Position numbers and translations under genes: made by a program
The notes under the pieces: generated by a model
Databases searched by the model: none
What the model was told of the DNA's origin: nothing
Seen by the model: only the letters and a program-made list of their open reading frames with translations
Sequence record: MH363708
Reading direction: 5' to 3' (one strand)
DNA from: Escherichia phage C130_2
Length of the DNA stretch: 41,775 nucleotides
Part shown: piece after piece, positions 1,296 to 41,775 of the stretch
How the letters are laid out: every line of letters begins with the position of its first letter
How positions within the stretch are numbered: the stretch's first letter is position 1

Positions 1296-1345
1296 CCTCA
1301 TATATTAATCGGGTATCAAAACCCACGTTTAACAAAAAGTGCTAT
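1296..1345 (-). promoter_or_regulatory. Promoter-like bipartite element (inverted-repeat motif plus TATA-rich element) for gene 101-1222
   Basis: Minus strand reads ATAGCACTTTTTGTTAAAC, then about 18 nt, then TTAATATATGAGG. Member of the recurring motif family (see findings). Confidence 0.45.
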
Positions 1346-1551
1346 TCGATTTCGTCGTAAGTGGCGAACAATGCACCGCTCATTTTCTTACTGGCCCAGC
1401 GGCCTTTGCTGAATACCACGGGGATCAGCATGTCGTTGTGTCGGATCTTCCCTCGCTCCGGTGTCTCAAGGTCAACCGTCAGCACCATGCCGCCGCGCAA
1501 TTTGTACTGGTGATAATACTTCTTATCCACAAAATTCACTTTTACACGCAT
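1342..1551 (-). CDS. Hypothetical small protein (69 aa)
   Basis: ATG at 1551 preceded by GGGAGG 9 nt upstream; the longer track ORF 1342-1689 has no better start. Confidence 0.45.
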   Translation of the reverse strand: MRVKVNFVDKKYYHQYKLRGGMVLTVDLETPERGKIRHNDMLIPVVFSKGRWASKKMSGALFATYDEIE

Positions 1552-3757: not shown

Positions 3758-3806
3758 AAATAGCACTTTTTGCTAAAACAGATTAATACAGACCATATAT
3801 AGTTAA
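3758..3806 (+). promoter_or_regulatory. Promoter-like bipartite element (site A) for the plus-strand early block
   Basis: AAATAGCACTTTTTGCTAAAACA (3758-3780), 18-bp spacer, CATATATAGTT containing a TATAGT -10-like hexamer; inverted-repeat centre about 42 bp upstream of the predicted start site. Confidence 0.5.
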
Positions 3807-4049: not shown

Positions 4050-4739
4050 ATGCAAAACAAAAAAGTATTCGTTAAAGAGGATCGCTATCTGGTGATCAAG
4101 CGCGCTGACCTGGAAGCGGCAACCGCTGCGGGGCTGCTGTCAGTTGGTCAGATTGCGATCCTGAATAAGATCCTTTGCGAGTCCAGCCGGATCCGCAGCA
4201 ACCGTGGCGCACGCCCGCTGCACGGCCTGTTTGTTGAAAATGACTGGCCTGAATACGACGCCGTTTTAAAGATGATTGCAGACCGCGTGGAAGGCGTGGA
4301 CGGCGCTGATAAGCAGGGGCCGATCCTTTACTGCATCGTTGACGCTGACGGCTTGCCATTCATGCAGGAATACTGCGTTGATCTGGATGCAGCCGCATTG
4401 CAAAAAGAAGTGGACGCGATGAACGAGCAAGACGGGATCCCCCCAGGTGGTGACGGCTTCCGCGTCGTGCCCCTTGAGGTGTACACCATTTCAGGCGCGC
4501 AACAACGCTGGGCCTGGTCAACGATCTTTGATCGCTTCCTGCGCACATTCCCTGAGCAAATGAACGTGCCCAACCGCAACGCAACCACGATGATTGATGA
4601 TCTGCTGGGTGAGTACGGCGAGATCCGCGATAATGCCCAGGCGGTGATCGACGAACTCGAAGAGGCGGCGAGCCATTCACCGGACGCCCGCCCAGCGATC
4701 AACAACGCGATCAAACTTCTCCGGGGTCTGCACAAATAG
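4050..4739 (+). CDS. Hypothetical early protein (229 aa), acidic
   Basis: Long ORF with GAGG RBS; no recognisable motif. Confidence 0.6.
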   Translation: MQNKKVFVKEDRYLVIKRADLEAATAAGLLSVGQIAILNKILCESSRIRSNRGARPLHGLFVENDWPEYDAVLKMIADRVEGVDGADKQGPILYCIVDADGLPFMQEYCVDLDAAALQKEVDAMNEQDGIPPGGDGFRVVPLEVYTISGAQQRWAWSTIFDRFLRTFPEQMNVPNRNATTMIDDLLGEYGEIRDNAQAVIDELEEAASHSPDARPAINNAIKLLRGLHK

Positions 4740-4780
4740 CACTTTTTGTTAAAACGATGGGATAATTACTATATATACTT
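4736..4780 (+). promoter_or_regulatory. Promoter-like bipartite element (site B)
   Basis: ATAGCACTTTTTGTTAAAAC, 18 bp, TATATATACT (TATACT -10-like), upstream of gene 4812. Confidence 0.5.
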
Positions 4781-6673: not shown

Positions 6674-6691
6674 AAATTATGACCGTCACGA

Positions 6692-6716
6692 AACCGCCAT
6701 TTGTGGCGGTTTTTTA
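6692..6716 (+). terminator. Rho-independent terminator
   Basis: CCGCCA-TTTG-TGGCGG stem-loop followed by TTTTTTATTTT. Confidence 0.6.
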
Positions 6717-6761: not shown

Positions 6762-7061
6762 ATGAATAAACTTTGGGCATGGTTAAAGACTCGCGGGAGT
6801 AAAGCCCGTATTGTGTTAATCGGTGGGTTGGTAGCCTTCACGGCTTACATTCACTTTTCGGCGGATCGACTGCGTGAGCGTTTAACGATCCTTTGGGGCA
6901 CTTTCACTGCGACGGCTGGCGCGCTTAGTCTTGGGGATGTGGCGATCATTGTCGGTATTCTCTGCACAATCGGATCACTCCTTATTAACTGGTATTACAA
7001 GGCGCGCGATGATAAGCGGAAAGAGGCCATTTTCCGTAAAGGCAGGATCATTGATGAATAG
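6762..7061 (+). CDS. Holin, class II / pinholin-like
   Basis: 99 aa, two hydrophobic helices, highly charged C-terminus ([16 protein letters not shown]) resembling the tail of phage 21 S pinholin; overlaps the endolysin start; GAGGA RBS. Confidence 0.6.
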
Positions 7062-7545
7062 CAAATTGTTTACAAAATTCACGGCGGCACTTGGAGGCGG
7101 GGCGCTGGCTGTCGCCTTCGCTTTGCTGTCCGGTCAAAATGGGTTAGAGGGGCGTGAGTATATCCCTTATCAAGATATTGTGGGGGTCTGGACGGTCTGC
7201 GACGGTCACACCGGCCCCGATATCATCAAGGGCAAGCGGTACACGGATCGGGAGTGTGACGCGCTCACCAAAGCCGATTTAAAACGCATCGCCAGCCAGA
7301 TCGATCCCAATATCAAAGTTAAGTTGCCGGAAACCGTTCACGCGGCGATCTATACCTTCGCCTATAACGTGGGCGCGGGTGCCTTCAACAAGTCAACCAT
7401 GCTGCGCAAAATCAACGCCGGTGACACCATCGGCGCTTGCAATGAGTTGCAACGCTGGGTTTACGCTGGCGGCAAGAAGTGGAAGGGGTTGATCAACCGC
7501 CGTGAGGTTGAAACAACCGTTTGCAAATGGAGCCTTACCAAATGA
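7054..7545 (+). CDS. SAR endolysin (T4-lysozyme / GH24 family, phage 21 R-like)
   Basis: N-terminal signal-anchor-release segment ([18 protein letters not shown]), then [25 protein letters not shown]...[12 protein letters not shown], closely resembling phage 21 R lysozyme as recalled. Confidence 0.85.
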
Positions 7546-8078
7546 CGTGGGCCGCTGTAGTTGCAGCGATCCAACGGTGGTGGAAGCCAGCCGCGCTGCT
7601 GTTGCTGCTGGGTGGATCCTTCGCCGCCGGCACGGCCTGGAATGATCGGGGCTGGCAAGCAAAATGGGCTGATCGGGATGCAAAAGAATCCTCCCAGGAA
7701 ACGAACGCGCAGACCGCAGCCCGCATGATTGAACAAGGGCGAACCATTGCCCGTGAAGAGGCTGTGAAAGATGCACAACAACAAGCGGCAAAAGCTGCTG
7801 CCACTGCTGCTGGCCTGTCTGCCACTGTTAGCAAGTTGCAGCAACAAGCCGGAAAACTCGCAACCCGCCTGGACGCCGCAAAGCACACCGCAGATCTTGC
7901 CGCTGCCGTCGCAAGCAAGACAACCGGCGCAAACGCCGCAATGCTCGCCAACATGCTCGGAAGCCTTGCAGAAGAAGCTAAATATTATGCTGGAAGATCT
8001 GACGAAAGCTATCGGGCCGGAATGACGTGTGAAAGGATTTACGATCAGGTGCGGGAGTCAAACAACAAGGGGCCATGA
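7542..8078 (+). CDS. i-spanin (Rz-like)
   Basis: ATGA overlap with the endolysin stop; N-terminal TM helix then Ala/Gln-rich coiled-coil periplasmic domain; last gene of the lysis cassette. Confidence 0.65.
7771..8025 (+). CDS. o-spanin (Rz1-like lipoprotein) embedded in the +1 frame of the i-spanin gene
   Basis: Lies entirely within 7542-8078 in another frame; signal peptide with lipobox LLASC, proline-rich mature part with Cys residues; the classic lambda/P21 nested arrangement. Confidence 0.6.
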
Positions 8079-8092
8079 TGGCCCCTTTTTTT
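8069..8092. terminator. Bidirectional intrinsic terminator between the lysis cassette and the convergent Ig-like gene
   Basis: GGGGCCATGATGGCCCC followed by T7 on the plus strand and a U-rich stretch on the minus strand. Confidence 0.6.
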
Positions 8093-10660: not shown

Positions 10661-10710
10661 GGGTTAACTATATATGGTCATTATGCCGGATGTTTAGCAA
10701 AAAGTGCTAT
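10661..10710 (-). promoter_or_regulatory. Promoter-like bipartite element (site C)
   Basis: Minus strand ATAGCACTTTTTGCTAAACA, 18 bp, CATATATAGTTAACCC; the 16-mer CATATATAGTTAACCC is identical to that at site A. Confidence 0.5.
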
Positions 10711-10713
10711 CAA

Positions 10714-13811: not shown

Positions 13812-13857
13812 ATACTATATATAAAGACTTTGCAAACGCTTTAGCAATTCGTGCTAT
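13812..13857 (-). promoter_or_regulatory. Promoter-like bipartite element (site D)
   Basis: Minus strand ATAGCACGAATTGCTAAAGC, 18 bp, TATATATAGTATG, upstream of dUTPase. Confidence 0.5.
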
Positions 13858-13939
13858 TCTCTAACTGTCTTTGTTTCCTTCTGCTTTTTTTAGCCAGCCA
13901 GCTAACGCCGCGCCTTCTCCCTTTGGTTGCGGCTTTTTT

Positions 13940-14782
13940 TCAGCTTAACCACGCATTCATTGCCCCTGTGATATCCAGACCGGCGCGCACCCTGCCGCAA
14001 TCCTGGTATAAATAGATCTCGTCCTGATCCAGCGCCACCAATCGCACTTCACGATCACCCCTGTAGCGTGCTGAAACCTCGCGGCAGTTCAGCGGGGTAA
14101 AGCCGATCCATATCTCGCAACCCTTCGCGGGGCCGTCATGCTCTGCCATTGCCACGGCACAAAGGGGATCGCTGATCAGGTAGATTGGCCCGTCTTGCAG
14201 CCCCTTTGCTGGGTGGATCACTGCCACTGCGCCCCAGGTGCGAAGACCTGCCGCAAAGTGTACTGATCGATCAGGGTCTACCCGCGCCAGATTGCAGAAT
14301 TGAAGCGACGCGCCCGACTCGGCAACCTTCCTGCATGGCAGATAGGCTGATCCCTTTCTCCCCCCAGCACGCGCCATGCTCACAACTTTATCGTGCGGGA
14401 TCTCCGCGCTGTTCCTGGTGGTCTTGCTCTTCGATATGGCTTTAGCCTCTCTGGCGACGCTCTCGCGCCGTTCTGGCGTCATGCCCCCCAGCCAATCACC
14501 CAAATCATTGATCGCCTCGTTAAACGGCTGCATACGCGCTTTCATGAACCAATAAAGCCCATCATGCGAGCCGCCGCAGTCGCCGGAACAATACGCGAAA
14601 CCTTCCTCGCGCTTTTGCGGTTTTTTGTGGCCCCAGCGGAAGCGATCAACGCCGCCGCAGATGGGGCAAGATTGGTGGTTGCCGTCAAAGTTTTTGTGCT
14701 GCCAGCCGCACAACTCGATCAACGCCTTTTCCCACTTATCCCGCATTCCTCGCAAAACTGTTTGCTTGTCATGGATTGCCAT
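13940..14782 (-). CDS. Putative DNA primase (zinc-ribbon plus TOPRIM-like)
   Basis: 280 aa; CPICGG...YCSGDCG zinc-binding motif and an acidic LVALDQDE segment; divergent from the helicase gene. Confidence 0.45.
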   Translation of the reverse strand: MAIHDKQTVLRGMRDKWEKALIELCGWQHKNFDGNHQSCPICGGVDRFRWGHKKPQKREEGFAYCSGDCGGSHDGLYWFMKARMQPFNEAINDLGDWLGGMTPERRESVAREAKAISKSKTTRNSAEIPHDKVVSMARAGGRKGSAYLPCRKVAESGASLQFCNLARVDPDRSVHFAAGLRTWGAVAVIHPAKGLQDGPIYLISDPLCAVAMAEHDGPAKGCEIWIGFTPLNCREVSARYRGDREVRLVALDQDEIYLYQDCGRVRAGLDITGAMNAWLS

Positions 14783-14804
14783 TTTTGCCGGTGTCCGTTA
14801 TATT
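14776..14804 (+). promoter_or_regulatory. Sigma70-like promoter for the helicase / recombination operon
   Basis: TTGCCA, 17 bp, TATATT, about 40 nt upstream of ATG 14846 (RBS GGAG). Confidence 0.4.
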
Positions 14805-14845: not shown

Positions 14846-16903
14846 ATGGCAACCGCTGACACGTTAGAAAGCACCTTCGCAGAAAGGTTGATGGAAACGA
14901 TAGAAGACCGGATCGCCCGCACGCCGATTGAAGATCTGATCCGGCAGTTTGGCGATCTGCCGCTGGATCCTTACCCCTATCAGTGGGCCGCTTATGACGC
15001 GGTGGCGCAGTGCATCCGAAAATACCCAGGGCCGGTGATCGTTGAAGCGGCAGTGAGCGCGGGCAAAACGATCATGATCTCCATGCTGGCGCGCCGCATC
15101 ATGCAGTTGCCGTGGGATGATGAAAACCCAGCGAAAAAGCACCGCGCTTGTGTGCTGTCTCGCCAGGCTGAGATCATCGATCAGGATGCGCAGGAATTGT
15201 GGAATTTTCACGTAAACAACTCCATTTTCTGCGCTGGCCTGGGCAACAAAAAATCAACCCATTATCCCATCGTGTGCGGCAGTGAAGGCACGATGGTTAA
15301 CAGTCTGTTTGACAAGCTGGCAGACTTCGCCCCGCTCTTCCTGATCATTGACGAATGCCACCACGTCAACATTGACGATCTGATCGAATCCGAAGAAAGG
15401 ATGGTGCCCGACTACCTCAAAGACGAAAACGGCGCACTTGTTCTGGAAGACGGCGAGCCTGTCCAGATTGGCGAGCACAAAGGCGAGAATTACGAGGAAA
15501 TGATCGCCGCAAAGCGCAACGCTTACACGATCATAATCAGGACTTTGCAGGAGCGGTGCCTTAAGGTTCACGGGTGCCGGTTGCGCGTGATCGGTTACAC
15601 CGGCACCCCTTACCGTGGGGTTGATTCCATCGTCAATGAGGATTACGAAACGCCAGGATTTTGGCGCAAGACGGTGATCCGCATCACGACAAATTACCTG
15701 GTAAAAGTCGGTTCAGTTGTGCCCACTTACTTTGGCGTGTCGTCGCTGGGTTATCAGTTGGATCAGTTCGCCAGCTTCACTGAGTTTGGGGCGAAGGATT
15801 TTAGCAACAACGAAATGATCGCCATGCAGCGGCAGATCCTGAAAGATAAAAAGCTGACCTGGAAGATCATGCAAGAAGTGGTGGAACTCACCAAAGAGCG
15901 CAACGGGGTTTTAGTCACCTGCGCTGGTGTGGCCCACTGCAAAGAGGCCGCAGCGGCCCTGCCGGACGGCATAAGCTATGCGATCATCACGGAAGACACC
16001 GGCCCGAAAAAGCGAATGGAGATCATCGAAGACGCGAAGGCCGGAAAGATAAAATTCATCTTCCAGGTTAACGCCCTTACAACGGGCGTGAATGTGCCCC
16101 TGTGGGATACTTCCGTTATCCTGCGCCGTATTGGGTCACTCACCCTGTTGGTGCAACTGCTGGGCCGTGGGATGCGTATTTTAAAGGATTGGATGATTGA
16201 AGCCGGATTCAAGAAGAGCGATCACCTCGTCCTGGACTATTCGGGCACTATGGCTGCAATGGGCGGGCTGTATGAGGATCCGATCCTTGAAGATTACGTG
16301 TACACCGTGGACAAGGTGAAAGAGGATTGGAAGGAATGCAAATACGGGCACAAAAACGGCAAGCACGCGCGCCGCTGCCGCCACATTCACCCCAACGGCG
16401 AGCGCTGCGATGATTTCTTTGTTTATAAGCTCTGCGAAGACGTCAAAGACCGCAGCACGGGCCGCATCTTGCAGAAGGGCTGCGGGGCCAAAAATGACAC
16501 CGTGGCGCGCCAGTGCCGCTGCTGTGGCAACCTCCTGATCGATCCAAACAAAAACCTATCCGGCGAGCATTACACGGATAAAGATTATTGCGACGTGATC
16601 AGCTTTACGCCGCAGGTTGGCAACGGTGGATCCTTCGCTATTGAGTATCAACTCATGAAGGATGGGATCCAGTTTAAGGCGTGGGAAATTCACTGGCCCA
16701 ACTCCAAAAACCCTGGGGCGAAACAGCTATGGAACCAGTTTTTAAAAGAGCATGTTTTCATGCCGGAGCACCGCGCCACGTTGAAGGCGTGCAAATCTGC
16801 CGAAGCCGTGTTGGCTAACGTATCGTTGATCCTCCCCCCAAAGCGGGTGACGCATCGTAAAATGGGAAGCGGCAAAGATAACGTTTACAAAAAGGTATTT
16901 TGA
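14846..16903 (+). CDS. SF2 DEAD/DEAH-box family helicase with C-terminal zinc-ribbon
   Basis: Walker A AAVSAGKT, Walker B / DEAH-like LIIDECHH, C-terminal Cys clusters (CRHIHPNGERC, CRCCG). Confidence 0.8.
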   Translation: MATADTLESTFAERLMETIEDRIARTPIEDLIRQFGDLPLDPYPYQWAAYDAVAQCIRKYPGPVIVEAAVSAGKTIMISMLARRIMQLPWDDENPAKKHRACVLSRQAEIIDQDAQELWNFHVNNSIFCAGLGNKKSTHYPIVCGSEGTMVNSLFDKLADFAPLFLIIDECHHVNIDDLIESEERMVPDYLKDENGALVLEDGEPVQIGEHKGENYEEMIAAKRNAYTIIIRTLQERCLKVHGCRLRVIGYTGTPYRGVDSIVNEDYETPGFWRKTVIRITTNYLVKVGSVVPTYFGVSSLGYQLDQFASFTEFGAKDFSNNEMIAMQRQILKDKKLTWKIMQEVVELTKERNGVLVTCAGVAHCKEAAAALPDGISYAIITEDTGPKKRMEIIEDAKAGKIKFIFQVNALTTGVNVPLWDTSVILRRIGSLTLLVQLLGRGMRILKDWMIEAGFKKSDHLVLDYSGTMAAMGGLYEDPILEDYVYTVDKVKEDWKECKYGHKNGKHARRCRHIHPNGERCDDFFVYKLCEDVKDRSTGRILQKGCGAKNDTVARQCRCCGNLLIDPNKNLSGEHYTDKDYCDVISFTPQVGNGGSFAIEYQLMKDGIQFKAWEIHWPNSKNPGAKQLWNQFLKEHVFMPEHRATLKACKSAEAVLANVSLILPPKRVTHRKMGSGKDNVYKKVF

Positions 16904-20098: not shown

Positions 20099-20478
20099 AC
20101 ACTCTGAAAGATAAAAACGTTTATTTGGCTGGCCCAATGACGGGGATCCCTGATTACAACCGCCCCGCGTTTATGGTGGCGCATTTCGCGCTGCGCCCGC
20201 ATGTGCTCGGCCTGTTGAATCCATCATTCCTGCCGGTAACGCTGCGTGATCATGCCGCCTATATGGCGATCTCCCTGCCGATGGTTGACGCGGCAGACGC
20301 GGTGGTATTCCTCCCAGGCTGGAAGGCTTCGAAAGGTTGCGCGCTGGAATTGGCCCGCGCCAATGAGCGTGGGATCCCGTGCTTCGAATACCTCAACCCC
20401 AGCAAAAAAGGCCGCTTGCCAAAACTGGTGCCTGTGGGCGATGATAGCGGGGTGAATACACGGGGGAATGAATCATGA
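20092..20478 (+). CDS. Nucleoside 2-deoxyribosyltransferase-like (DUF4406-like) protein
   Basis: ATG at 20092 overlapping the HNH stop; VYLAGPMTG...VVFLPGW...ELARA pattern of a Rossmann-like fold. Confidence 0.45.
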   Translation: MLNTLKDKNVYLAGPMTGIPDYNRPAFMVAHFALRPHVLGLLNPSFLPVTLRDHAAYMAISLPMVDAADAVVFLPGWKASKGCALELARANERGIPCFEYLNPSKKGRLPKLVPVGDDSGVNTRGNES

Positions 20479-20690
20479 AAATTGCAATCCTGATCGCTGA
20501 CGTGCGAAAGGCGAAAGGAAAGAGCCAGCGGCAGATCTCGGAAGCAACGGGGATCGCTGAGCGCCAGTTAAGCCGCTATGAAAACCAGCACGAAACGCCG
20601 TCTTTGGCAACGCTGGTTAAGGTGGCAGGGGCGCTGGGCGTCAACTTCTCTGATCTGGTTGAAGTGTCGGACATGGTTGATCCGGCTTAA
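20475..20690 (+). CDS. XRE-family helix-turn-helix transcriptional regulator
   Basis: 71 aa; QRQISEATGIAERQLSRYE HTH signature; overlapping start. Confidence 0.65.
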   Translation: MKIAILIADVRKAKGKSQRQISEATGIAERQLSRYENQHETPSLATLVKVAGALGVNFSDLVEVSDMVDPA

Positions 20691-20704: not shown

Positions 20705-20733
20705 ATAAGGGGCCATTGCGGCCCCTTTTTTTA
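20705..20733. terminator. Bidirectional intrinsic terminator between the plus-strand block and the tailspike gene
   Basis: A-run, GGGGCCATTGCGGCCCC, T7. Confidence 0.65.
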
Positions 20734-23062: not shown

Positions 23063-26000
23063 TTACTGCTGCCCGTAGATCTGGATCCGCTGCTCACCGT
23101 CAGGGCCGGTGATTAACGGCGGGCGCTCGTCGGTCTGCTCACCGTCGCTGGCTGCTGCCGCTGCCGGAGTACCGGCAAGCCATGCGATGAAACCAGCGCG
23201 GGCGATTTGACGTTGATCAGCCTCGGCAAGCGTGGCGATAAAGTCTTGGGCCGCTTTGCTGTTCGCAAGGCGTCGCTCTGTGGTGTTGATGATCGTCCGG
23301 CTTGGGCCGCTGGATCCATCGTCTGCCACCATGCGAGCAACCGCCCTGATCGCCTGGGTCATATCATCACCGGCGAGGAAACGATCCGCAACCTGCGAAG
23401 CCGCAGCACGGTTGGCAACTGCCCCGCGCGCAGCCTCAACGGCAACGTTACCGAAGCCAGGAGAAACCGCAGCCGCCGCCGATTGCGTCAACATGGCACC
23501 GATCCGCGTGTTAAAGACTTTATCCAAAAAGTCATTGCTGTTGTTGAAGCGGCGCGAAAAGTTGTTGATCTTGCCGGTGGCGGCGAAAGATTCACCCTCT
23601 TTGCGGGCTGCGTTGGCGACTTTCGCCAGGTTGTCAACAACTGCACGCTGATCCGCTGGCAGGTGCTGCATGAGCATTCCCAATTTGCCTGAGTTGCGCG
23701 CCTCGGTGTACCACTTCGCAAAGCCTGGAATGTTCAGGCGTTCGCCGGTGGTGCCGCTCATGCGGAATGCCATTGCAAGCGCGTTGGTCGCAACCTGCGG
23801 GCGCATAGCCGCTGGCGTTGATCGCATGAGAGTTTGAAAACCCTTTGGATCTGCGCCTTTGGTGCCCAGCGCTTTAACAGCCTGATAAATCTTGCTGCTT
23901 GCGGAATTATCAAGCTCTTTGCCCAGCACGGCTTGCTGTTTGGCCTGTAGCGCCACGCGCTGACGGGTCAGATCCTTTGCCGCATCCCACGCATCTTTCA
24001 CGCCAAACTGTGCCGCCACATCCCCTTGATCCTCGGTTAAACGGCTGTACATGGCGTTAAGGCGCGCAACGTTCGCATCCTTGTATGGGCCTTGACGCTT
24101 GTTAATCGCCGCGCCAACGTCTTTGCGCACATCGTCCAGAAGGGCGAAAGTCGGCCCGCCTCGGCTGTCGCTGGTTGGGCTTAGGCGTTCCAATACGCTA
24201 CGCTCAATCGGATCCAGGTTGGCTGCGCCGCCACGGTTACTGGCTTTCTGGTTGAGGTAATCAACCGTCTTTTCTGGATTTACCGGAGTGTGATCCGGGA
24301 TCGTGCGCAATGATTTGTTATAGGCCGCAGTTTCAGCGGTGCCGATATCATCGATCAGTCGGCTTGTCTCTGCCTTGAATGCCTGATCGAAGGTGAGATC
24401 CTCAACCGGCCCGCCTAAGTCTTCCAGCACCTTATCTGCGCGGGCAGTCAACGCCTGATACTGGCGGCTCTGCTTCTCACCCAAAAGGGATCCGGTTTCG
24501 CTGCGCAGGTTGCCGATCACGTCGCGGGTTGACTTGTCGCGCATAAACAGGCCAGGCGTCAGATCGTCAGTCACGCCCAATTCATCTGCGGCGCGCACAA
24601 CCTCTGGATCGATATCGCCACGGCGCGCAAGGTTGATCGCCGCGTTCGGTGCGCTGGAAGTCTCGCCGGTTGCCGCGTCGGTTACTGTGGTGCGCGGTGC
24701 GCTTCCGCGTGCTGCTGCGGTTGCATCCTGTCGCACGGCGTCAATAGCGGCTTGTTGCGTCGCTTCTGCGCCACCAGTACCAGTGCCAGTGCCCGCGCCC
24801 GTTGCGTCCTCTGCTGGGCGGATCAGATCACGGATCACCGGTGCTGCACGCCGTGCGGCTGCGCCAACGGCATTTACTGCCGCCTCGCCCACTGGCCCTG
24901 CTGCGATGCCGATCAGCGCGTCTTGCTGGTCGCCTTCGCTGGCTGCAAGGGCACCTGGCACGGCACGGGTTGCCGGTGCTGCGATCCGTTGCTCAAGGAA
25001 TCCCCCCAAACGGGAAAGGATGCTCGCAACCTCTGGCGAAGCTGTGCCCGCCAATTCTGCCATTTCGCGTGCGATACCCTGAATTTTCGGGGCTGCTGAC
25101 ATAGCCGCGCCACCAGGGATCGGGGTCAGACCGGCGATCAACTTCGCGCCAAACTGAGCATAAGGATCTTCGGGATCATCAAGCCCCATGCCGATCCGGC
25201 CTTCGGGGATCGGGGTATAGGTGCCGTCACCCAGCCCAACTTGCTTGCCCAGCCATGCACCGGCAGACTGTGCCGCGTTCGCTGCATAGATCGGGATGTT
25301 GAGCACGTCTTCTGCTGCGCGCACTAAACCTTTGCCCGCCTGAGTCAGATCGCGCCCAATCGTTGTGGGTGCCTGGTAATCCTGCAACTGCTCTGCGCTG
25401 TAGTAGTCGCCGCTGGTGTCTGGTTGCGGCTGTGCGGCGCTCTGCTGCGTCGTGGCGGCTTGCGGCTGTGGTTGGGTGTCCATAGTCGCTTGCGGCTGTT
25501 CTGGCGCTGCTGGCTGCGTTTCCTGCGGTGCTCGCGGGGTCAGTTCGCCAAACTGGCTGGCAAATTTGTTGGTTGATCCGGTGTCGCCGGCACGGGCGCT
25601 GGTTGCCCGCTGTGGCGCGTCGGAGTCTGTGACCGCACCCAAAGCGCGATCAATCGGGTTAACGCCGCCCGTCCACTGGTCAAAGCGTGAATCGACGTAT
25701 TGACGCCCTTCCGGCCCTGGGGTGTACTCGCCTTTTAACATGGCGTCGGTGTTGCCTGGGCCGTCATGGTACGCTTGCAGGGCCAGCCCCCAATCGCCGT
25801 AGCGGTCATACATCTGGCGCAGGTATTTTGCGCCCGCTTCGGCCTGTAGCGCAGGATTGTTGCGCACCTCTGCTGGGTCATAGCCCATATCGCGCAGCGT
25901 GCCTGGCATAACCTGAGTGCCACCAATGGCACCTTTGCTGGACGTTGCGCCAGTGTCGCCGCCAGACTCTTTGCCAACGAGCGCAGACATAAGCCCTTCT

Positions 26001-26128: not shown

Positions 26129-27451
26129 TTAAAGCCCCTCTGGTAAATAGCCCGCCCATTCTTTAAAGGCGCGTTTGTTCTCTTCTGACGGGTCAGAGAG
26201 TAGCATTTTGCGCGCCTGGGCTGGTACTCCCAATTCATCCAGCTTGGGATCATTCATCACCGCATCATAACGGCTGGTGTTGTTGGTGTATTCCTTCACG
26301 CGCCCGCCGTTGGCTTTTTCGTACCCATCGCGCAAACGCTTAAGGTAGTTGCCAAAGTTTTTGATCGCACGCTGTGCCGCTGCCGGATCCTGAATGTTTT
26401 CAGGGTCGAAGCCCATCAACGATTGCGTGATCGCCATGCTTTCTTTTTCGGACATGCCCGCAGCCGTACCGGATGCAGCCTTGAGTGCCGCCATTGATTG
26501 CGACATTGCCAGGCCTTGAAGTGACTTAAGATCCTGCACCAGTTGCTTTTCATCGTTCGCGCCAGGGATGTTGCGCGCAATGGTGCCGCTTAAACCGCTT
26601 GCGCCTTCCCACGCCGTCTGCAAACGCTGTTTGCTGGCTGGGTTTTTCTGGTTGTCAGGGATCAGGCGGTTGACCTGTCCAATTGCATTATCAAGCGTCG
26701 TAACCTGGCTGTTGTAGCCGTTCAGCCAGTCGCGCTGGGTGTCTACGGTGTCGCCGTATACCTGCGCTTGTTTCTGCTGCGCTGCGGTGCGCTCACGCTC
26801 GCTCTTCGCCAGTTCGGCTTGCTGCTTGGCTTGCTGGCCCTGATAGCGCAAAAAGTTAAACTGGCGATTCATAGCCAGATTAGCCGCCTGGATATCCTGC
26901 GAGCGAGCCGTAAGGCGGTTGCGCTCAACCTCGTTGGCGTAGTCCAGTTGGTCTTTTGTGCCCATGCTGGAAAGCTGCACCGCGTGAACCGCCTGTTCAA
27001 AGCCCTGCTGGTCTGTCTGGTACTGCTCCCACGCATCCTGCGGATCGATGTTCAGCGCCTGGAATGCACCGGCGTTTTGCTGAATAAACTGCTGTACCTG
27101 CTGCGGCCCCTGAGACATTGCCACGCGCACGCCGTTTGCAAGCTGGCCCGCCTGGGTCGCTTGCATATCGTCTTGCAGCCCGATCCGCTCTTTCAGGGTG
27201 CTAATCATCGACGGGTATTTATAAACCAGATCATTCAGCTTTTGCGGATCGCCGCGTGCCGCGCTCCAATCCTGGTTAAACTGCTGCAATTGCTGCTGCT
27301 GCTGATCCTGCTGCTGCATGGCTTTAGCACGGATCTGGTTCTGCTGCTGCAATCCGGTGTTTTGCTGGATCGTCTGAATGTTATTGAGCGTGTTTTGCCC
27401 TGCGCGCTCAATAACCCCCATGTTTTGACCGAAAACGCTCATATCTGACAT
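26129..27451 (-). CDS. Ejection protein (P22 gp20-like by position), Gln-rich
   Basis: 440 aa, translationally coupled, very Q-rich; assignment by synteny only. Confidence 0.45.
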   Translation of the reverse strand: MSDMSVFGQNMGVIERAGQNTLNNIQTIQQNTGLQQQNQIRAKAMQQQDQQQQQLQQFNQDWSAARGDPQKLNDLVYKYPSMISTLKERIGLQDDMQATQAGQLANGVRVAMSQGPQQVQQFIQQNAGAFQALNIDPQDAWEQYQTDQQGFEQAVHAVQLSSMGTKDQLDYANEVERNRLTARSQDIQAANLAMNRQFNFLRYQGQQAKQQAELAKSERERTAAQQKQAQVYGDTVDTQRDWLNGYNSQVTTLDNAIGQVNRLIPDNQKNPASKQRLQTAWEGASGLSGTIARNIPGANDEKQLVQDLKSLQGLAMSQSMAALKAASGTAAGMSEKESMAITQSLMGFDPENIQDPAAAQRAIKNFGNYLKRLRDGYEKANGGRVKEYTNNTSRYDAVMNDPKLDELGVPAQARKMLLSDPSEENKRAFKEWAGYLPEGL

Positions 27452-34730: not shown

Positions 34731-34774
34731 ATTCTTAACCCTCATGAATTAGTGAAGTGTACGGGCAAAGAATA

Positions 34775-34813
34775 GCCCGCCGAAGCGGGCTTGTCTTTAG
34801 CAAAAAGTGCTAT
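34775..34813 (-). promoter_or_regulatory. Inverted-repeat motif copy (site E) plus UUCG hairpin at the portal / insert junction
   Basis: Minus strand ATAGCACTTTTTGCTAAAG overlapping the portal stop codon, followed by GCCCGC-TTCG-GCGGGC; no TATATAG element here. Confidence 0.4.
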
Positions 34814-37050
34814 TGCTGCGGTTGCTGGGTTGCGGTCTGCTGCGCGGCAGATAACAGGCGATCCGCTTCGCGGTTGTCTTGCTCCTGCTGCTGCTGTCCG
34901 AAGCTCTGCAAAAGCTGGATAACCTGCACCAACTGGTTGTGCTCCACGCCCGCTGCGTCTGCCAGCGTCTTGATCGTCTGCGCCTCGGTCAAGCGTCCAT
35001 CCTGGGCGGCTTTGTTGGCGTCCACGTTCAGTTTCAGCGCTTTCAGTTGCAGATCCAAATGCTTGTTTTGCTCGCCCATCAAGGCTGCATCGCCTTTCTT
35101 GTTCTCTGCGATTGCCAGTTGGGTTGCGGCGTCCGGCTGCTGGTTCTGCTTCGACTGCTCCAGCATGGCTTTTTCTTCGTCCGTTTCCGGCTTGATCACA
35201 CCCTGCAAGATCATCTGATTGCGGGCGTACTCGCGGAAGTCCTGCATTCCCTCGCCGTCCATGTTCATGATGATCAGCGCCGCAACAATCGCAGCATTTG
35301 GGCTGGCGTCGCCCATCGTGGCAAGCAAGTTGGTCAGGTTGCGCACGGTGGCTTGACGGCGCGTTGTGCTCGCCTCGCCCACATCGGCTTCAACCTCATA
35401 GCGCCCCTGCGAAAGATCGTTGAGGCCGATCTCTTCTTTCGTGGTGCGGTCAATGATCTTGCCGTCCATCAATACGAACTCATCCGATCCGTCTTCCTGC
35501 ACGATTCGAATATAATCGGTTGATCCGTACACCTCGCGCGCCATTTCACGCCATACGCGCCCCGCGTGGCGCAGGGATTTTGCGAGGTTGTCCATATACA
35601 GCGCGCCTTGCCCGTCCATGCGGGAGAAAATCGCCTCAACGGTTTCCGTTGCCAGGTTGCTTGGCATGTTCTCAAGCTGGCTGGCCCCTACGATCTGTTG
35701 AATCGTGCCGCCCGTGTATTGCAGGATCGCTGCAACGGCTGGGCTTAGTGGGGTTGTCGGGGTGAAGTTGATCACCTGCCCTGCGGCAATAACATTGCCG
35801 TCAGCGTCGCGCAACGAGTCAACCGGCAGGAATGCTGGTCGATCAGTGTTACGATCCCCCCACGCCTGAGCCAGCGGGCCTGGGATCATGTTGATATCCA
35901 CAATCGGGATATTATCGCCGCCACACTGCGCCGCGTTGTCAGCCAGCATGGACACGATCAGGTTTTCCAGGCGCTGCGCATCAACGGCTAACGTAGCGTG
36001 ACCGGCGATCCGCTCCTTGTTGTCCACGAACGAACGGCGGGCATACACGGGGATCAGCGGAATATAACAGCCTGGCAAGCGCTTTGGCTTCTCGATCCAC
36101 TCGCCACCCGATAGGATCCCGCAGTAAACGCGCGGCTTTTTGACGGTGCGGCGGCTCTGCTCTTCAAATCCGCTTTCGCTCAACTCGTCTTTGATATCCT
36201 CGATCTGCTCTTCGTCGTAAACAACGGTTTGCTGCGTGATCGGGTTCAGGTAGCTAACCACGTCCACATCTTCGATCCGCTTCTCGTAGTAGCGCGCCAG
36301 GTAAACAACGTTCGGCGTTACCCAATCAAACTGCTTGCCGGTGTCGATGGTTTCCAGCGCGGCTGGCGGCAGGGCGTCTGGATATTGATCTTCGAAGCTG
36401 TCACGATCCAGGCTGTAAAGCTCGGTGGCCCACATAGCATCACTGCGATCATACTGCTTGCTGTTCTGGTCAAAGAAGACGCACGACGCCGGATCATAGA
36501 CCGGATAGAAACGAATGTTTCGTTGCACGCTTTCGGGGTTGAATGCGTCTTCCTCTTCGGTGTCCATGCGGAAGCAACCAAAGCCGCCCGTTACCGCATC
36601 ATCAAAAGCGTTGTCGATAGCCTCGCCGCCGCTGGACTCGTTGAAGTCGGCGCGAAACTTGCCATTCATCTTGTCGGCTAACTCGTCGGACGCGGCCCCA
36701 TCCTTCGGACGGAATACCACGTTGATCCGGTTCTGGCGGTAGTCGGTAATGATGCGATCAACTTCGCGCGCCAGCTTGTTCAGCTCAAAGCGCGGGTATT
36801 TTTCAAAGCGTTTATCGTCCATCGCCCAACCGGCAGACGTGCTGCCTTCCCACTGCGCACCAACGACACGAACAAAGCGCAGCACTTCGATCATCTTCTT
36901 GCGCGTAGTCTCTTCATTCGCGTACTGTTGCCCAATGCGCTTGCGGGCACGTTCAAAGCAAGCCTCGTCGCGCTTGGTCTGCTCTGCCGCCTCGCGGTTG
37001 CGCTGGCGCGTTTCGCGTGCCTTCTGCGCTGGGGTTTTGCTATTCGCCAT
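34810..37050 (-). CDS. Portal protein
   Basis: 746 aa, GGGAG RBS, directly downstream of the large terminase; size and position as P22 gp1. Confidence 0.8.
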   Translation of the reverse strand: MANSKTPAQKARETRQRNREAAEQTKRDEACFERARKRIGQQYANEETTRKKMIEVLRFVRVVGAQWEGSTSAGWAMDDKRFEKYPRFELNKLAREVDRIITDYRQNRINVVFRPKDGAASDELADKMNGKFRADFNESSGGEAIDNAFDDAVTGGFGCFRMDTEEEDAFNPESVQRNIRFYPVYDPASCVFFDQNSKQYDRSDAMWATELYSLDRDSFEDQYPDALPPAALETIDTGKQFDWVTPNVVYLARYYEKRIEDVDVVSYLNPITQQTVVYDEEQIEDIKDELSESGFEEQSRRTVKKPRVYCGILSGGEWIEKPKRLPGCYIPLIPVYARRSFVDNKERIAGHATLAVDAQRLENLIVSMLADNAAQCGGDNIPIVDINMIPGPLAQAWGDRNTDRPAFLPVDSLRDADGNVIAAGQVINFTPTTPLSPAVAAILQYTGGTIQQIVGASQLENMPSNLATETVEAIFSRMDGQGALYMDNLAKSLRHAGRVWREMAREVYGSTDYIRIVQEDGSDEFVLMDGKIIDRTTKEEIGLNDLSQGRYEVEADVGEASTTRRQATVRNLTNLLATMGDASPNAAIVAALIIMNMDGEGMQDFREYARNQMILQGVIKPETDEEKAMLEQSKQNQQPDAATQLAIAENKKGDAALMGEQNKHLDLQLKALKLNVDANKAAQDGRLTEAQTIKTLADAAGVEHNQLVQVIQLLQSFGQQQQEQDNREADRLLSAAQQTATQQPQQ

Positions 37051-37098
37051 TTGTCGGCACTCCCTCTGGTTTCATCTGGATATCACCACGGGGCAAAA

Positions 37099-37143
37099 AT
37101 AGCACAAATTGCTAAAACATTTCACGGATTAATGATTATAGTA
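37099..37143 (+). promoter_or_regulatory. Promoter-like bipartite element (site G) driving a plus-strand ORF inside the late region
   Basis: ATAGCACAAATTGCTAAAACA, 18-bp spacer, then TGATTATAGTA (contains the TATAGT hexamer). Confidence 0.45.
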
Positions 37144-37176
37144 AACGCACATTCACTGATTAATGAGGCAAGAAAA

Positions 37177-37380
37177 ATGGGAATCGAAATTACTGTGGGC
37201 CTGTTGTTGATGCGCGTTGCTTGCGCGCTGGTGGTTGGTCTGGCTGCGGGCCGCATTGGTCGCCGTGGCTGGCTGTGGGCACTCGTCACACTGGCTGGCG
37301 GCGTGATCATCGGCCTGGGCGGTCTGTTCATTGCCGAAGTGGTGAAGGCGCGGGCCAAAAAATCCCGCGTGCCGGCGTGA
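37177..37380 (+). CDS. Small two-helix membrane protein (67 aa) transcribed antisense to the late operon
   Basis: ATG at 37177 with GAGG RBS; two hydrophobic helices (ITVGLLLMRVACALVVGLAAG, WLWALVTLAGGVIIGLGGLFIA) and a basic C-terminus; lies between the terminase and portal genes. Confidence 0.5.
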   Translation: MGIEITVGLLLMRVACALVVGLAAGRIGRRGWLWALVTLAGGVIIGLGGLFIAEVVKARAKKSRVPA

Positions 37381-37501
37381 GTGGGATCAACCCAATAACG
37401 CTGGCTATCCGCACCGCTCATGAGCGCAACGCGCTTGATCGATGGGTGGCATACGTTAACGCGGCGTTGGCGTTCAGGGCTGAAATGATGCGATTGTTTG
37501 A

Positions 37502-37518
37502 GGGGCCATAATGGCCCC
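37502..37518. other. GC-rich hairpin GGGGCCATAATGGCCCC between the terminase and portal genes
   Basis: Perfect 6-bp stem; could terminate the antisense small-ORF transcript or act as a processing or attenuation site in the late transcript. Confidence 0.4.
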
Positions 37519-37524
37519 CTTTGC

Positions 37525-39147
37525 TTATCGGTTGGACGGCACCCGCAGGTTGCTATAGTCCGGCCTGATCTGCGGCTTCGGCGGCTGCATCGTCATGATC
37601 AGACTATCTGCCATGCCTGGTGAGCGGATCTTCAACTTCTCGCGCATTTGCTTTTTCGGCATCCTGCGGAATTTCCCGTTGTTGTCGTAGATACGGGGGA
37701 TCCTGCATAGCTCGGCGCGTAGCTGGGCCATAAATTCACCGATCCCCTCGCTGTCCAGACTGATCAACTCGTCGGGGTTGCTGTACTCCCCGTGCTCAAT
37801 CGCCCTGTATGTCTTTTCAAAGCGACGGCGTAACAGGTAGATATCCTGCGATCCCCTGTCACCAAACTGATCTTTGTTTTTGCGGGTGTTGCGCCCCTCG
37901 GCCTCCTTGTTTAGCCAGTTGTCCAACTCCACTGGCGCTTCGGGATTCTTCACGCCTTCACCGGCCTTGTATTCGTCCACCAGCACGGCAGTATCTTTGT
38001 AAGCCGTGGTGATATCGCGGCGCAGGGCTGCGCCCAGGCCGGAACCATCCCAAAGGAACATATTCACGCCGTGCGCCTTCGCCCAGGTGATCGCCTTGTC
38101 GGCTGAGTCGTTGGCGTCGCCGTCATACCAGGATTGAGCGAAGCAAACAACGCTGCCGTGCCGCTCAATGTACGCCTTGTTATCTTTCCCCACGTCTGCT
38201 GGGTCAAGTGCTGCGATGCGTGCGCCGGTAGGCTTCCAGCCCATTTTCTTATGCGCATCAATGGCGGCATCGAACCATTCAGCCGGAATGATCGCATCTT
38301 CTACGCTGTCGTTAAATGCGCCGTGCCAGATATGATCGAACAAGGCGCGGGAAAGCGTCTTCCGATCAAACTCCATTTCGGCGCGCAGGGCTTCGGGGAA
38401 CCACGGGTTTTTGTCGTAGTTCACTTTGATAACGAGGTGTAGATCATCCTCGTAGATCCCTTTGGCGTCCAGTTCATGCAGGAACGGCACAATAAAGCGC
38501 TGCGAGAATGGATCCTCGCTGCTGCCTGGGTTGGCGGTAAAGATCATGCGCCCGCCTTCCTCGCGCATGGTCGGGGTCAGCTTGCGCAGACTGTCGGCGC
38601 TGAATGTCTGCGACTCTTCACCCCAAAAGCGGGTAAAGCCAAACGCCGATTTTACGCCGTCAGGGTCACGGGCCATGCCTTTAAAGCGGTGCCCGCCGCC
38701 GTTGGCGTGCCTGATCTCGTCGCGCAGGAACTCCAGCCCCTCGATCCCCTGCTTCTCGGCGCACGCCTTTAACAGCGGGTAAACGGAATCTTTGATCGAT
38801 GATTGGAACTCACGGAGGTTGAGCACCTTTGCTGCGTAGTCGTCAACGTCAGCATTGACGATGCGGCCCACGCTTTCTGACTTGCCGGAACCACGGCCCC
38901 CGATGATAACGATAAATCGTTTTGGGCGGGTCAATACCGGCTCCATGACTTCGGGGATCGTCACGGTGTGCGGCTCGGTTGTTTCCACCCAGCGACGGCC
39001 CACGCGCTTAATATTCTTGACGTGGATCGGCATGAAGTCAGACGGGCGATAGATACCGAAAACCGTTTGGGTGTGCGTTTCGATATGGCGCGCCCTCGCC
39101 TCTGCCTGGTTCGTCCGGCGCATAATGTCTTTGAGGTTACGCCCCAT
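37525..39147 (-). CDS. Terminase large subunit
   Basis: 540 aa; Walker A IIGGRGSGKS near the N-terminus, nuclease-like C-terminal half; GAGGA RBS; immediately upstream of the portal gene. Confidence 0.85.
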   Translation of the reverse strand: MGRNLKDIMRRTNQAEARARHIETHTQTVFGIYRPSDFMPIHVKNIKRVGRRWVETTEPHTVTIPEVMEPVLTRPKRFIVIIGGRGSGKSESVGRIVNADVDDYAAKVLNLREFQSSIKDSVYPLLKACAEKQGIEGLEFLRDEIRHANGGGHRFKGMARDPDGVKSAFGFTRFWGEESQTFSADSLRKLTPTMREEGGRMIFTANPGSSEDPFSQRFIVPFLHELDAKGIYEDDLHLVIKVNYDKNPWFPEALRAEMEFDRKTLSRALFDHIWHGAFNDSVEDAIIPAEWFDAAIDAHKKMGWKPTGARIAALDPADVGKDNKAYIERHGSVVCFAQSWYDGDANDSADKAITWAKAHGVNMFLWDGSGLGAALRRDITTAYKDTAVLVDEYKAGEGVKNPEAPVELDNWLNKEAEGRNTRKNKDQFGDRGSQDIYLLRRRFEKTYRAIEHGEYSNPDELISLDSEGIGEFMAQLRAELCRIPRIYDNNGKFRRMPKKQMREKLKIRSPGMADSLIMTMQPPKPQIRPDYSNLRVPSNR

Positions 39148-41139: not shown

Positions 41140-41496
41140 TTAACGCCCCTGTGCTGCGTTGCCAACGCTTCTGACGGCTTCCGCATAGCTGCGTTTGGCG
41201 ATTGCCTCGGCCTCTTTGCGGGAGTACCCACGGCGCATAAGTGACGCCGTACCTTTGGCGATCAGACGCGCCTTTTTCTCTTTGCGTGTCTCGCCCTCTT
41301 TGCGGTCTGGCACGTCAGGCGGTGTGCCCATCATGGCACGCTGCATGGCTGCGCGTGGCTTCACAATACCGGCGTTGATCGCCTCCTGCCGGATGTTATC
41401 GGCGCGCATCTTCTGGATCGGCTCTGGTATCACTTCGGCTTTTTGTTTCGAACTGATCACCATGTTAACCAATGCGCTGATAATCCCTCGTTTCAT
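41140..41496 (-). CDS. Hypothetical basic protein (118 aa), first gene after the terminator hairpins
   Basis: ATG at 41496 preceded by TGAGG 9 nt upstream; the track ORF extends further but this is the first ATG with an RBS. The window begins at the reverse complement of its first two codons (ATGAAA). Confidence 0.5.
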   Translation of the reverse strand: MKRGIISALVNMVISSKQKAEVIPEPIQKMRADNIRQEAINAGIVKPRAAMQRAMMGTPPDVPDRKEGETRKEKKARLIAKGTASLMRRGYSRKEAEAIAKRSYAEAVRSVGNAAQGR

Positions 41497-41775
41497 CGTC
41501 TTTGCCTCATTGTTTCGTGAATGTGTGGTGAGCGTACAACAAAGGGGCCGCAGCCGCAAGCCCCTTGATATCCTCCCAGCGAGGCTGGGCTTAAATTGCC
41601 CTGTCGCTGCTCTTCGCCAGGTGTCCACCTTTGCCGATCCAGGCGCTGGCGCGCTGGTATTCGCTGGCGATCAACTCGTCGGTAACATACAGCCCGCCCC
41701 GATGATATGCCGCGTTAAACTCCGGCGATTCGTTGTAACCACGGCTCATAGCGTCTGCTATGGCTTCCAGCGCCT
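41491..41775. repeat. Terminal exact repeat, right copy (identical to 1-285)
   Basis: Same 285 bp as the window start; duplicates the 3' end of the 101-1222 gene, its terminator hairpins and the first two codons of the 41140-41496 gene. Confidence 0.9.

Follow-up and report, generated by a model that had tools for sequence, protein, structure and literature searches.

A putative accessory cassette for a small, probably membrane-embedded protein lies antisense at the terminase–portal junction of Escherichia phage C130_2

The genes for the large terminase (TerL) and the portal protein of Escherichia phage C130_2, a Giessenvirus-type phage isolated from cheese, are separated by 474 nt, and this interval carries a short reading frame on the opposite strand. 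The arrangement raises the question of what a gene directed against its structural neighbours encodes, how it is expressed and how it came to lie there. The frame corresponds to gp50 (HOU22_gp50, YP_009812597.1), whose existing annotation is hypothetical protein, and no description of its function or regulation was found in the literature searched. The window analysed was the whole of sequence record MH363708 (41,775 nt), to which coordinates refer unless another record is named; the interval between the two genes is termed the island. We propose, as a matter of roughly even probability, that a self-contained accessory cassette, of the kind called a "moron", occupies the locus; it would derive from one ancestral insertion and encode a membrane protein of the exclusion or host-membrane-modulating kind. 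The parts of this proposal carry different weights. That the cassette is real and autonomous is held with high confidence, whereas an exclusion-type or host-membrane-modulating role for its product, put forward by analogy, is tentative. The features of the locus, in order of position, are the following:

34810–37050, minus strand: portal gene (P22_portal, E 7.7e-155), downstream of the island in the late direction
37098–37118, plus strand: palindromic element AATAGCAC-N4-TGCTAAAAC with the core TAGCA-N5-TGCTA, 0 mismatches to the consensus
37137–37142, plus strand: −10-like hexamer TATAGT, exactly 18 nt past the element
37149–37176, plus strand: predicted transcription start (A at about 37149, placed from the −10 position only) and short leader
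37177–37380, plus strand: gp50 gene (orf67), 67 aa, probable helical-hairpin membrane protein
37377–37511, plus strand: gp51 gene (orf44), soluble product of 44 aa, with a GTG start that overlaps the gp50 stop as GTGA
37502–37528, plus strand: intrinsic-terminator-like hairpin GGGGCCATAATGGCCCC with the tail CTTTGCTTAT (hairpin proper at 37502–37518)
37525–39147, minus strand: TerL gene (Terminase_3, E 9.8e-28), upstream of the island in the late direction

The gp50 frame runs from the ATG at 37177 to the TGA at 37378–37380 on the plus strand and encodes MGIEITVGLLLMRVACALVVGLAAGRIGRRGWLWALVTLAGGVIIGLGGLFIAEVVKARAKKSRVPA. Two hydrophobic peaks span residues ~5–25 and ~33–55 (GRAVY 1.11), and an AlphaFold prediction from a nine-sequence alignment yielded, at modest confidence (pLDDT 68), helices at residues 2–27 and 31–63 joined by a three-residue turn. 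We regard gp50 as very probably a membrane protein. The sequence-only reading had placed a 67-residue, two-helix membrane-protein gene on the opposite strand between terminase and portal, preceded by a GAGG ribosome-binding site (RBS), and both are present, the latter at 37165–37168, 8 nt before the ATG. The orientation in the membrane is ambiguous: the loop between the helices, RIGRRG, contains three arginines and the C-terminal tail, KARAKKSR, five basic residues, and the positive-inside rule returns a conflicting topology with the basic loop and the basic tail on nominally opposite faces. The GC content at third codon positions (0.69) resembles that of the neighbouring genes. Two longer frames were considered and rejected as genes, namely a 99-residue antisense frame (37122–37421), which is not open in the islands of the phage Skarpretter type described below, and a 150-residue upstream extension of gp50, whose start falls inside the promoter and has no RBS.

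Upstream of gp50 lies a promoter-like element of a class that belongs to the phage itself. The element at 37098–37118, AATAGCACAAATTGCTAAAAC, lies ~48 nt from the portal start codon and belongs to a set of seven copies in C130_2 at up to 3 mismatches, compared with 0.06 expected; none of 100 shuffled sequences reached seven. Skarpretter has six copies in syntenic places, against 0.08 expected; the class is conserved in two phage genera. No description of it was found in the literature searched. The copies are located as follows:

C130_2: 1326–1346 (minus), 3759–3779 (plus), 4735–4755 (plus), 10691–10711 (minus), 13838–13858 (minus), 34794–34814 (minus) and 37098–37118 (plus)
Skarpretter (L029; L numbers are our handles for records): 3963, 24172, 26478, 35074, 35710 and 36883

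Six of the seven C130_2 copies are followed at exactly 18 nt by TATAGT, TATACT or TAATAT, and in the same six a GAGG and an ATG come ~25–30 nt beyond the hexamer. In Skarpretter, TATAGT is spaced at 18 nt in four copies and at 19 nt in two. The leaders of the class are C/A-rich in both phages (CTCACA.. or CACATTCAC), and TATAGT is nearly invariant in the island alignment, with TACAGT in L038 as the sole deviant. A strict sigma-70 scan at the gp50 promoter site found no −35/−10 promoter; TTGCTA was considered as a −35 element and discarded, since it lies 22 nt from TATAGT. The centre of the palindrome is ~30 nt 5' of TATAGT, that is, at about −42 if the hexamer occupies −12 to −7. A palindrome that overlaps the −35 region is the layout typical of promoters dependent on a dimeric activator. 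Taken with the want of a usable −35 element across the class, this suggests that a phage-encoded dimeric DNA-binding protein may serve as activator. An XRE-type helix-turn-helix protein is encoded at 20475–20690 (HTH_3, 2e-14) and is a candidate for this part.

The promoter had been called early-type. The resemblance on which that name was based is borne out by the perfect copy of the element and by TATAGT at 18 nt, but the timing is not, as the class precedes structural genes as well as DNA-metabolism genes, which include those for a dUTPase and a DNA methylase. One further copy lies at the other end of the portal gene:

34794–34814, minus strand: second palindrome copy near the portal gene, overlapping the portal stop codon, with a GC hairpin behind it at 34774–34791

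This copy faces the genes ahead of scaffold and coat. Together with the gp50 copy it brackets the portal gene, which is likewise bracketed in Skarpretter. Its hexamer is degenerate (CTATTC), and the syntenic Skarpretter copy at 24172 has TATAGT at 19 nt, one base beyond the usual 18. Both phages have a terminator-like GC hairpin with the tail ATTCTTTGCC within the would-be promoter spacer (C130_2 34774–34814, minus; Skarpretter 24150–24192, minus), and the combination looks like a terminator nested in a putative promoter. A sigma-70-like divergent pair sits at the primase/helicase junction, with TTGCCA-17-TATATT (10 of 12 matches) at 14776–14804 on the plus strand and TTGCCA-17-TATTCT at 14852–14824 on the minus strand. 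These are the best sigma-70-like promoters of the genome and probably the true early ones, of a class distinct from the palindrome type. With the palindrome class also ahead of structural genes and a separate sigma-70-like pair elsewhere, timing is not readable from sequence.

Downstream of the predicted start, the leader holds the conserved CACATTCAC and AATGAGG and is unstructured (−2.8 kcal/mol, z +1.2). At the other end of the cassette, the hairpin at 37502–37518 has seven pairs, six of them G-C, and a folding energy of −14.1 kcal/mol. A GC hairpin downstream of gp50 had been reported from the letters, and it exists, although not directly downstream, as it begins 121 nt past the gp50 stop codon; that reading also missed the second, coupled frame gp51 that lies between. 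The plus-strand sequence after the hairpin is CUUUGCUUAU, and the corresponding minus-strand sequence, UCAAACAAUCGC, is not U-rich. The plus-side T-rich tail overlaps the TerL stop codon (37525–37527) and is kept in all island versions. Its restriction to the plus side fits with late transcription having to continue past the island from TerL into portal. The predicted plus transcript, from ~37149 to ~37520, would be antisense to neither flanking coding sequence, and its start would lie ~100 nt from the portal ATG. The sequence-only reading had also suggested that collision with late transcription could attenuate terminase or portal expression. For the terminase, the geometry speaks against this: late transcription passes TerL before it reaches the collision zone, and the predicted plus transcript goes no further than the TerL stop codon. 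An effect could fall on read-through into portal alone.

The same hairpin family, AAGGGGCC-N3-5-GGCCCCTT, closes all three convergent gene junctions of C130_2 (8067–8087, 20707–20727 and 37502–37518). At the first two, the hairpin is flanked by T-rich tails left and right and looks bidirectional; at the third, the tail is T-rich on the plus side only. A separate, strong terminator-like hairpin with a T-run lies at 6681–6713 on the plus strand, ~50 nt upstream of the holin gene at 6762, so that the lysis cassette may need a promoter of its own or antitermination.

How the cassette came to lie between TerL and portal was approached by comparison of island versions, which came from viral contigs scanned by way of the portal, from metagenomes scanned with a DNA pattern and from look-ups of the exact protein. 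They fall into a C130_2 type (C130_2, L004/L035, L033, L034 and a record named Stutzerimonas phage STP9) and a Skarpretter type (Skarpretter, L036, L037 and L038). Within the former, gp50 proteins are 90–100% identical and all changes are conservative (V/I, G/A, L/V/M, I/T), with dN/dS of 0.2–0.66 from small counts. The Skarpretter-type orthologues have 66–69 residues and 27–30% identity to gp50, at the same site and with the same promoter, RBS and terminator; dN/dS within that clade is 0.27–0.44 at dS of 0.4–1.6. The sequence-only reading had made its case hinge in part on conservation of the frame in related genomes, and the frame is indeed kept in all island versions, with dN/dS below 1. 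Nearly invariant across both clades, in nine island versions, are the palindrome, the spacer block CATTTCAC, TGATTATAGTAA, the leader CACATTCAC and AATGAGG. Skarpretter, L036, L037 and L038 all have the palindrome where C130_2 has it, and the DNA from the palindrome to the portal start is not conserved between the clades.

At the protein level, an alignment of seven sequences (A1) has C16, G21-x-A-A-G-R26, W32, G46 and L50-F51 invariant, and after addition of a weak 91-residue match (A2) only M1, G21, A24, R26, G46 and L50 remain so. The C-terminal tail is not conserved, being basic in the C130_2 clade only and mixed or acidic in the Skarpretter clade. The positional orthologue in Skarpretter (NC_048112) is gp30 (YP_009816899.1, hypothetical protein), annotated at 26467–26763 with 98 residues and a start inside the promoter element, which makes it 30 codons too long. 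The conserved GAGG and the ATG at 26557 point instead to a product of 68 residues, in line with all orthologues.

Relatives that lack the island have a short TerL–portal junction. In Sortsnevirus-type loci (L006–L010 and L013), with portal ~60% and TerL ~64% identical to those of C130_2, the TerL stop and the portal ATG are 15–18 nt apart and the junction contains GGAG; in the Kosakonia phages Kc166B and Kc259 the two genes are separated by 37 and 13 nt, respectively. With TerL and portal only 13–37 nt apart in relatives, the cassette is read as an insertion. Among the relatives compared, the island is confined to the C130_2 and Skarpretter lineages, and the simplest reading of these sequences is that one insertion took place in an ancestor that the C130_2 (Giessenvirus) and Skarpretter lineages share.

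Behind gp50, the island is variable. The gp51 frame, 100% identical to HOU22_gp51, has no obvious RBS and is missing in most close relatives, as befits exchangeable cargo. Seven of ten sampled contigs with the exact gp50 protein have a cargo-free slot, in which the gp50 stop is directly followed by the terminator. The occupied slots contain:

C130_2, L046 and L049: the 44-residue gp51
L004, L033 and STP9: a 56-residue frame that matches phrog_35516 (E 1.2e-12)
L037: a gp31-like frame
Skarpretter: gp31 and gp32
L036: a gp32-like frame
L038: an unrelated frame

Thus gp50 is the constant gene, and the frames behind it vary from zero to two per island. Profile searches with the cargo frames found no known function, and phrog_35516 is itself of unknown function. 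Several of these frames (those of L004/L033/L001, gp31 and gp32 of Skarpretter, and those of L036 and L037) have in common a helix motif near the C-terminus, (I/V)xELAQR or ELRQR with a heptad-like stretch behind it, and are otherwise unrelated. In L041 (Logan SRR36242585), the slot holds at 1715–1860 what looks like the remains of a tRNA, with the motif GGTTCGA(A)TCC, similar to a T-arm, present twice; ARAGORN called no tRNA in it and the only Rfam match was weak and tRNA-like (E 0.83). We take it as further evidence that the slot is an insertion hot spot.

Searches for wider kinship returned little. Against Pfam, PHROGs and PADLOC, gp50 and eight relatives gave nothing significant, the best matches being EMC6 (E 0.071) and phrog_13090 (E 0.0068). 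No Pfam match was found at E values up to 5 for any of the nine family members, including to the T4 Imm family PF14373; none matched a holin, exclusion or immunity profile, and none of the nine matched a PADLOC defence-protein profile. The segment GLAAGR recalls what we take to be a motif of the GlsB/YeaQ/YmgE proteins, a kinship for which the Pfam scan gave no support. A word-indexed protein search with gp50 returned near-identical copies only. A full HMMER profile search over 1.84 billion representatives retrieved three solid clusters, which represent the two positional clades, and the weak 91-residue match, which lies in an unrelated context; a further match was rejected as a repetitive false hit. 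The gp50 family is therefore real but tiny, and its function cannot be borrowed from relatives. Searches of 100,044 species genomes, of complete E. coli genomes and of plasmids found no prophage or plasmid copy, and all carrier contigs are shorter than 50 kb. With no prophage, plasmid or >50-kb carrier, C130_2 appears virulent. Both C130_2 and Skarpretter grow on E. coli.

These observations can be assembled into a model in which host RNA polymerase, probably aided by a phage dimeric protein on the palindrome, would initiate near 37149, and plus-strand transcription would end at ~37520, just before the TerL stop codon. Production of gp50 would then not depend on the late operon, and the cassette would yield no RNA antisense to the coding sequences beside it. 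Late TerL–portal transcripts would be complementary to the cassette mRNA and would meet its promoter head-on, which makes antagonistic expression likely. As the promoter class may not be early, any role for gp50 before late transcription is conjectural. The conserved residues of the protein (C16, GxAAGR, W32 and the small-residue motifs of helix 2) are predicted to be membrane-embedded and the tail is not conserved, so that gp50 most likely works through helix–helix contact with another inner-membrane protein. By this model, gp50 would block genome entry by a second phage, in logic like T4 Imm or gp15 of HK97 and outside both families. Superinfection exclusion, to which insertions of this sort had been linked in the sequence-only reading, is a plausible role by analogy. 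The fuller claim, that the family is a new intramembrane exclusion or host-takeover factor of virulent P22-type podoviruses, controlled within a phage-encoded activator regulon of palindrome-type promoters, set head-on into the TerL–portal junction and shut off by late transcription, with the slot behind it as a site of small-gene exchange, is rather doubtful in our estimation. In likelihood, the exclusion-type role comes first, followed by lysis timing, a regulatory role, an assembly helper and a chance frame.

Second in this order, gp50 might be a holin-like or antiholin-like factor that tunes the timing of lysis by the canonical holin. In size (67 residues), in its two predicted Gly/Ala-rich helices with small-xxx-small motifs and in its basic C-tail it resembles class II holins and pinholins such as S21-68 (~68 residues), the likeness in the tail being limited to the C130_2 clade. 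Helix 1 is weakly hydrophobic and contains an arginine, a feature that recalls releasable signal-anchor domains. However, C130_2 has a separate, complete lysis cassette at 6762–8078, with a canonical holin at 6762–7061 (Phage_holin_2_3, 2.7e-16), a Phage_lysozyme endolysin and a DUF2514 spanin. From this cassette gp50 is remote, and no holin profile recognises it, while the canonical holin is matched. Skarpretter-type orthologues do not keep the basic tail, and the two clades share the gp50 protein though their holins differ (Phage_holin_2_3 versus Phage_holin_3_1, as annotated). We judge a role in lysis timing unlikely.

A regulatory reading shifts the weight from the protein to the DNA: a promoter directed against the late operon, the factor bound to it and a terminator active in one direction would set or time read-through into portal, by transcriptional interference or as a roadblock, with the peptide in second place. 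Between the clades, no part of the island is better conserved than the promoter and leader, two palindromes bracket the portal gene in both C130_2 and Skarpretter, and a terminator that is T-rich on the plus side only would still permit late read-through. On the other hand, the frame is under purifying selection, and its length, helices and motif are kept at 27–30% identity, all of which is needless for a spacer. Relatives express portal with a junction of 13–37 nt, and the island holds no conserved minus-strand portal promoter, in that no conserved −10 occurs at a consistent offset in C130_2 and Skarpretter. Regulation as the first purpose of the locus is accordingly improbable.

T4 gp40 acts at the membrane in assembly for gp20, and gp50, which adjoins the portal gene and is probably membrane-embedded, might by the same token be a small inner-membrane chaperone from which assembly of the portal or procapsid starts; gp50 is missing from sister lineages whose portals are homologous (~60% identity), the gene is oriented opposite to the morphogenesis genes under its own promoter, and no profile similarity was found, so this role is very improbable. 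That gp50 is a chance frame in GC-rich DNA and the island only non-coding punctuation, a view that could draw on the long stop-free runs in other frames and on the opposite strand here and on the want of a known family, is close to negligible in the face of an orthologous frame of 66–69 residues with conserved RBS and start in nine island versions, dN/dS below 1 at dS up to ~1.6 and a GC3 pattern like that of real genes.

The accessory cassette that we favour can be set beside known systems. Morons, a concept of Juhala, Hendrix and colleagues, are extra genes of tailed phages, such as HK97 gp15 and lambda bor and lom. As in a moron, an extra gene lies between genes that are adjacent in related phages (474 nt here versus 13–37 nt), with its own upstream promoter-like element and a downstream terminator of the intrinsic type, as far as these can be read from the DNA, and its product is small and accessory; moron products are often membrane proteins. 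It differs in that the phage appears virulent, although lysogenic conversion is a frequent and not an obligatory moron trait, in that the promoter comes from a multi-copy class of the phage and not from the generic constitutive sigma-70 type, in that the cassette runs antisense to the operon into which it is set, and in that it consists of an anchor gene followed by a slot for exchangeable small frames. Like Imm, the superinfection immunity protein of T4 (PF14373), gp50 is small, probably sits in the inner membrane with two predicted hydrophobic helices, belongs to an apparently virulent phage and would be transcribed apart from structural genes; it shows no sequence or profile similarity to Imm. 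Type I toxins of the Hok/TisB kind have a single helix and fewer than ~60 residues, in contrast with the two helices and 66–69 residues of the gp50 family, and are controlled by a dedicated antisense small RNA that acts in cis or in trans. An Rfam search over 36800–37800 found no RNA family, and the late mRNA itself would be the sole antisense transcript.

Altogether, gp50 looks like an uncharacterised accessory cassette gene of ordinary layout, already annotated, and not like a new kind of system. If the exclusion or membrane-modulating role were true, a small, easily tested protein would join the short list of such factors in virulent coliphages, and the locus would be a clean natural case of an accessory cassette under a promoter class of the phage's own. 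Practical gains are the corrected start of Skarpretter gp30 and the definition of the seven-copy promoter class in C130_2.

Several minor observations concern the records themselves. The record L001 (OR754315.1, "Stutzerimonas phage vB_SstS_STP9", UNVERIFIED_ORG) is 95–98% identical to C130_2 in the structural region, and its assignment to a Stutzerimonas host looks doubtful. The exact gp50 protein is also filed under an Enterobacter hormaechei accession (WP_439197438.1), which probably derives from a phage contig within a bacterial assembly. The ends of the C130_2 sequence form an exact 285-nt direct repeat (1–285 and 41491–41775), which reflects either a genuine terminal repeat or, if the genome is circularly permuted, redundancy left by the assembly. 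Contigs related to C130_2 measure 41.3–42.2 kb.
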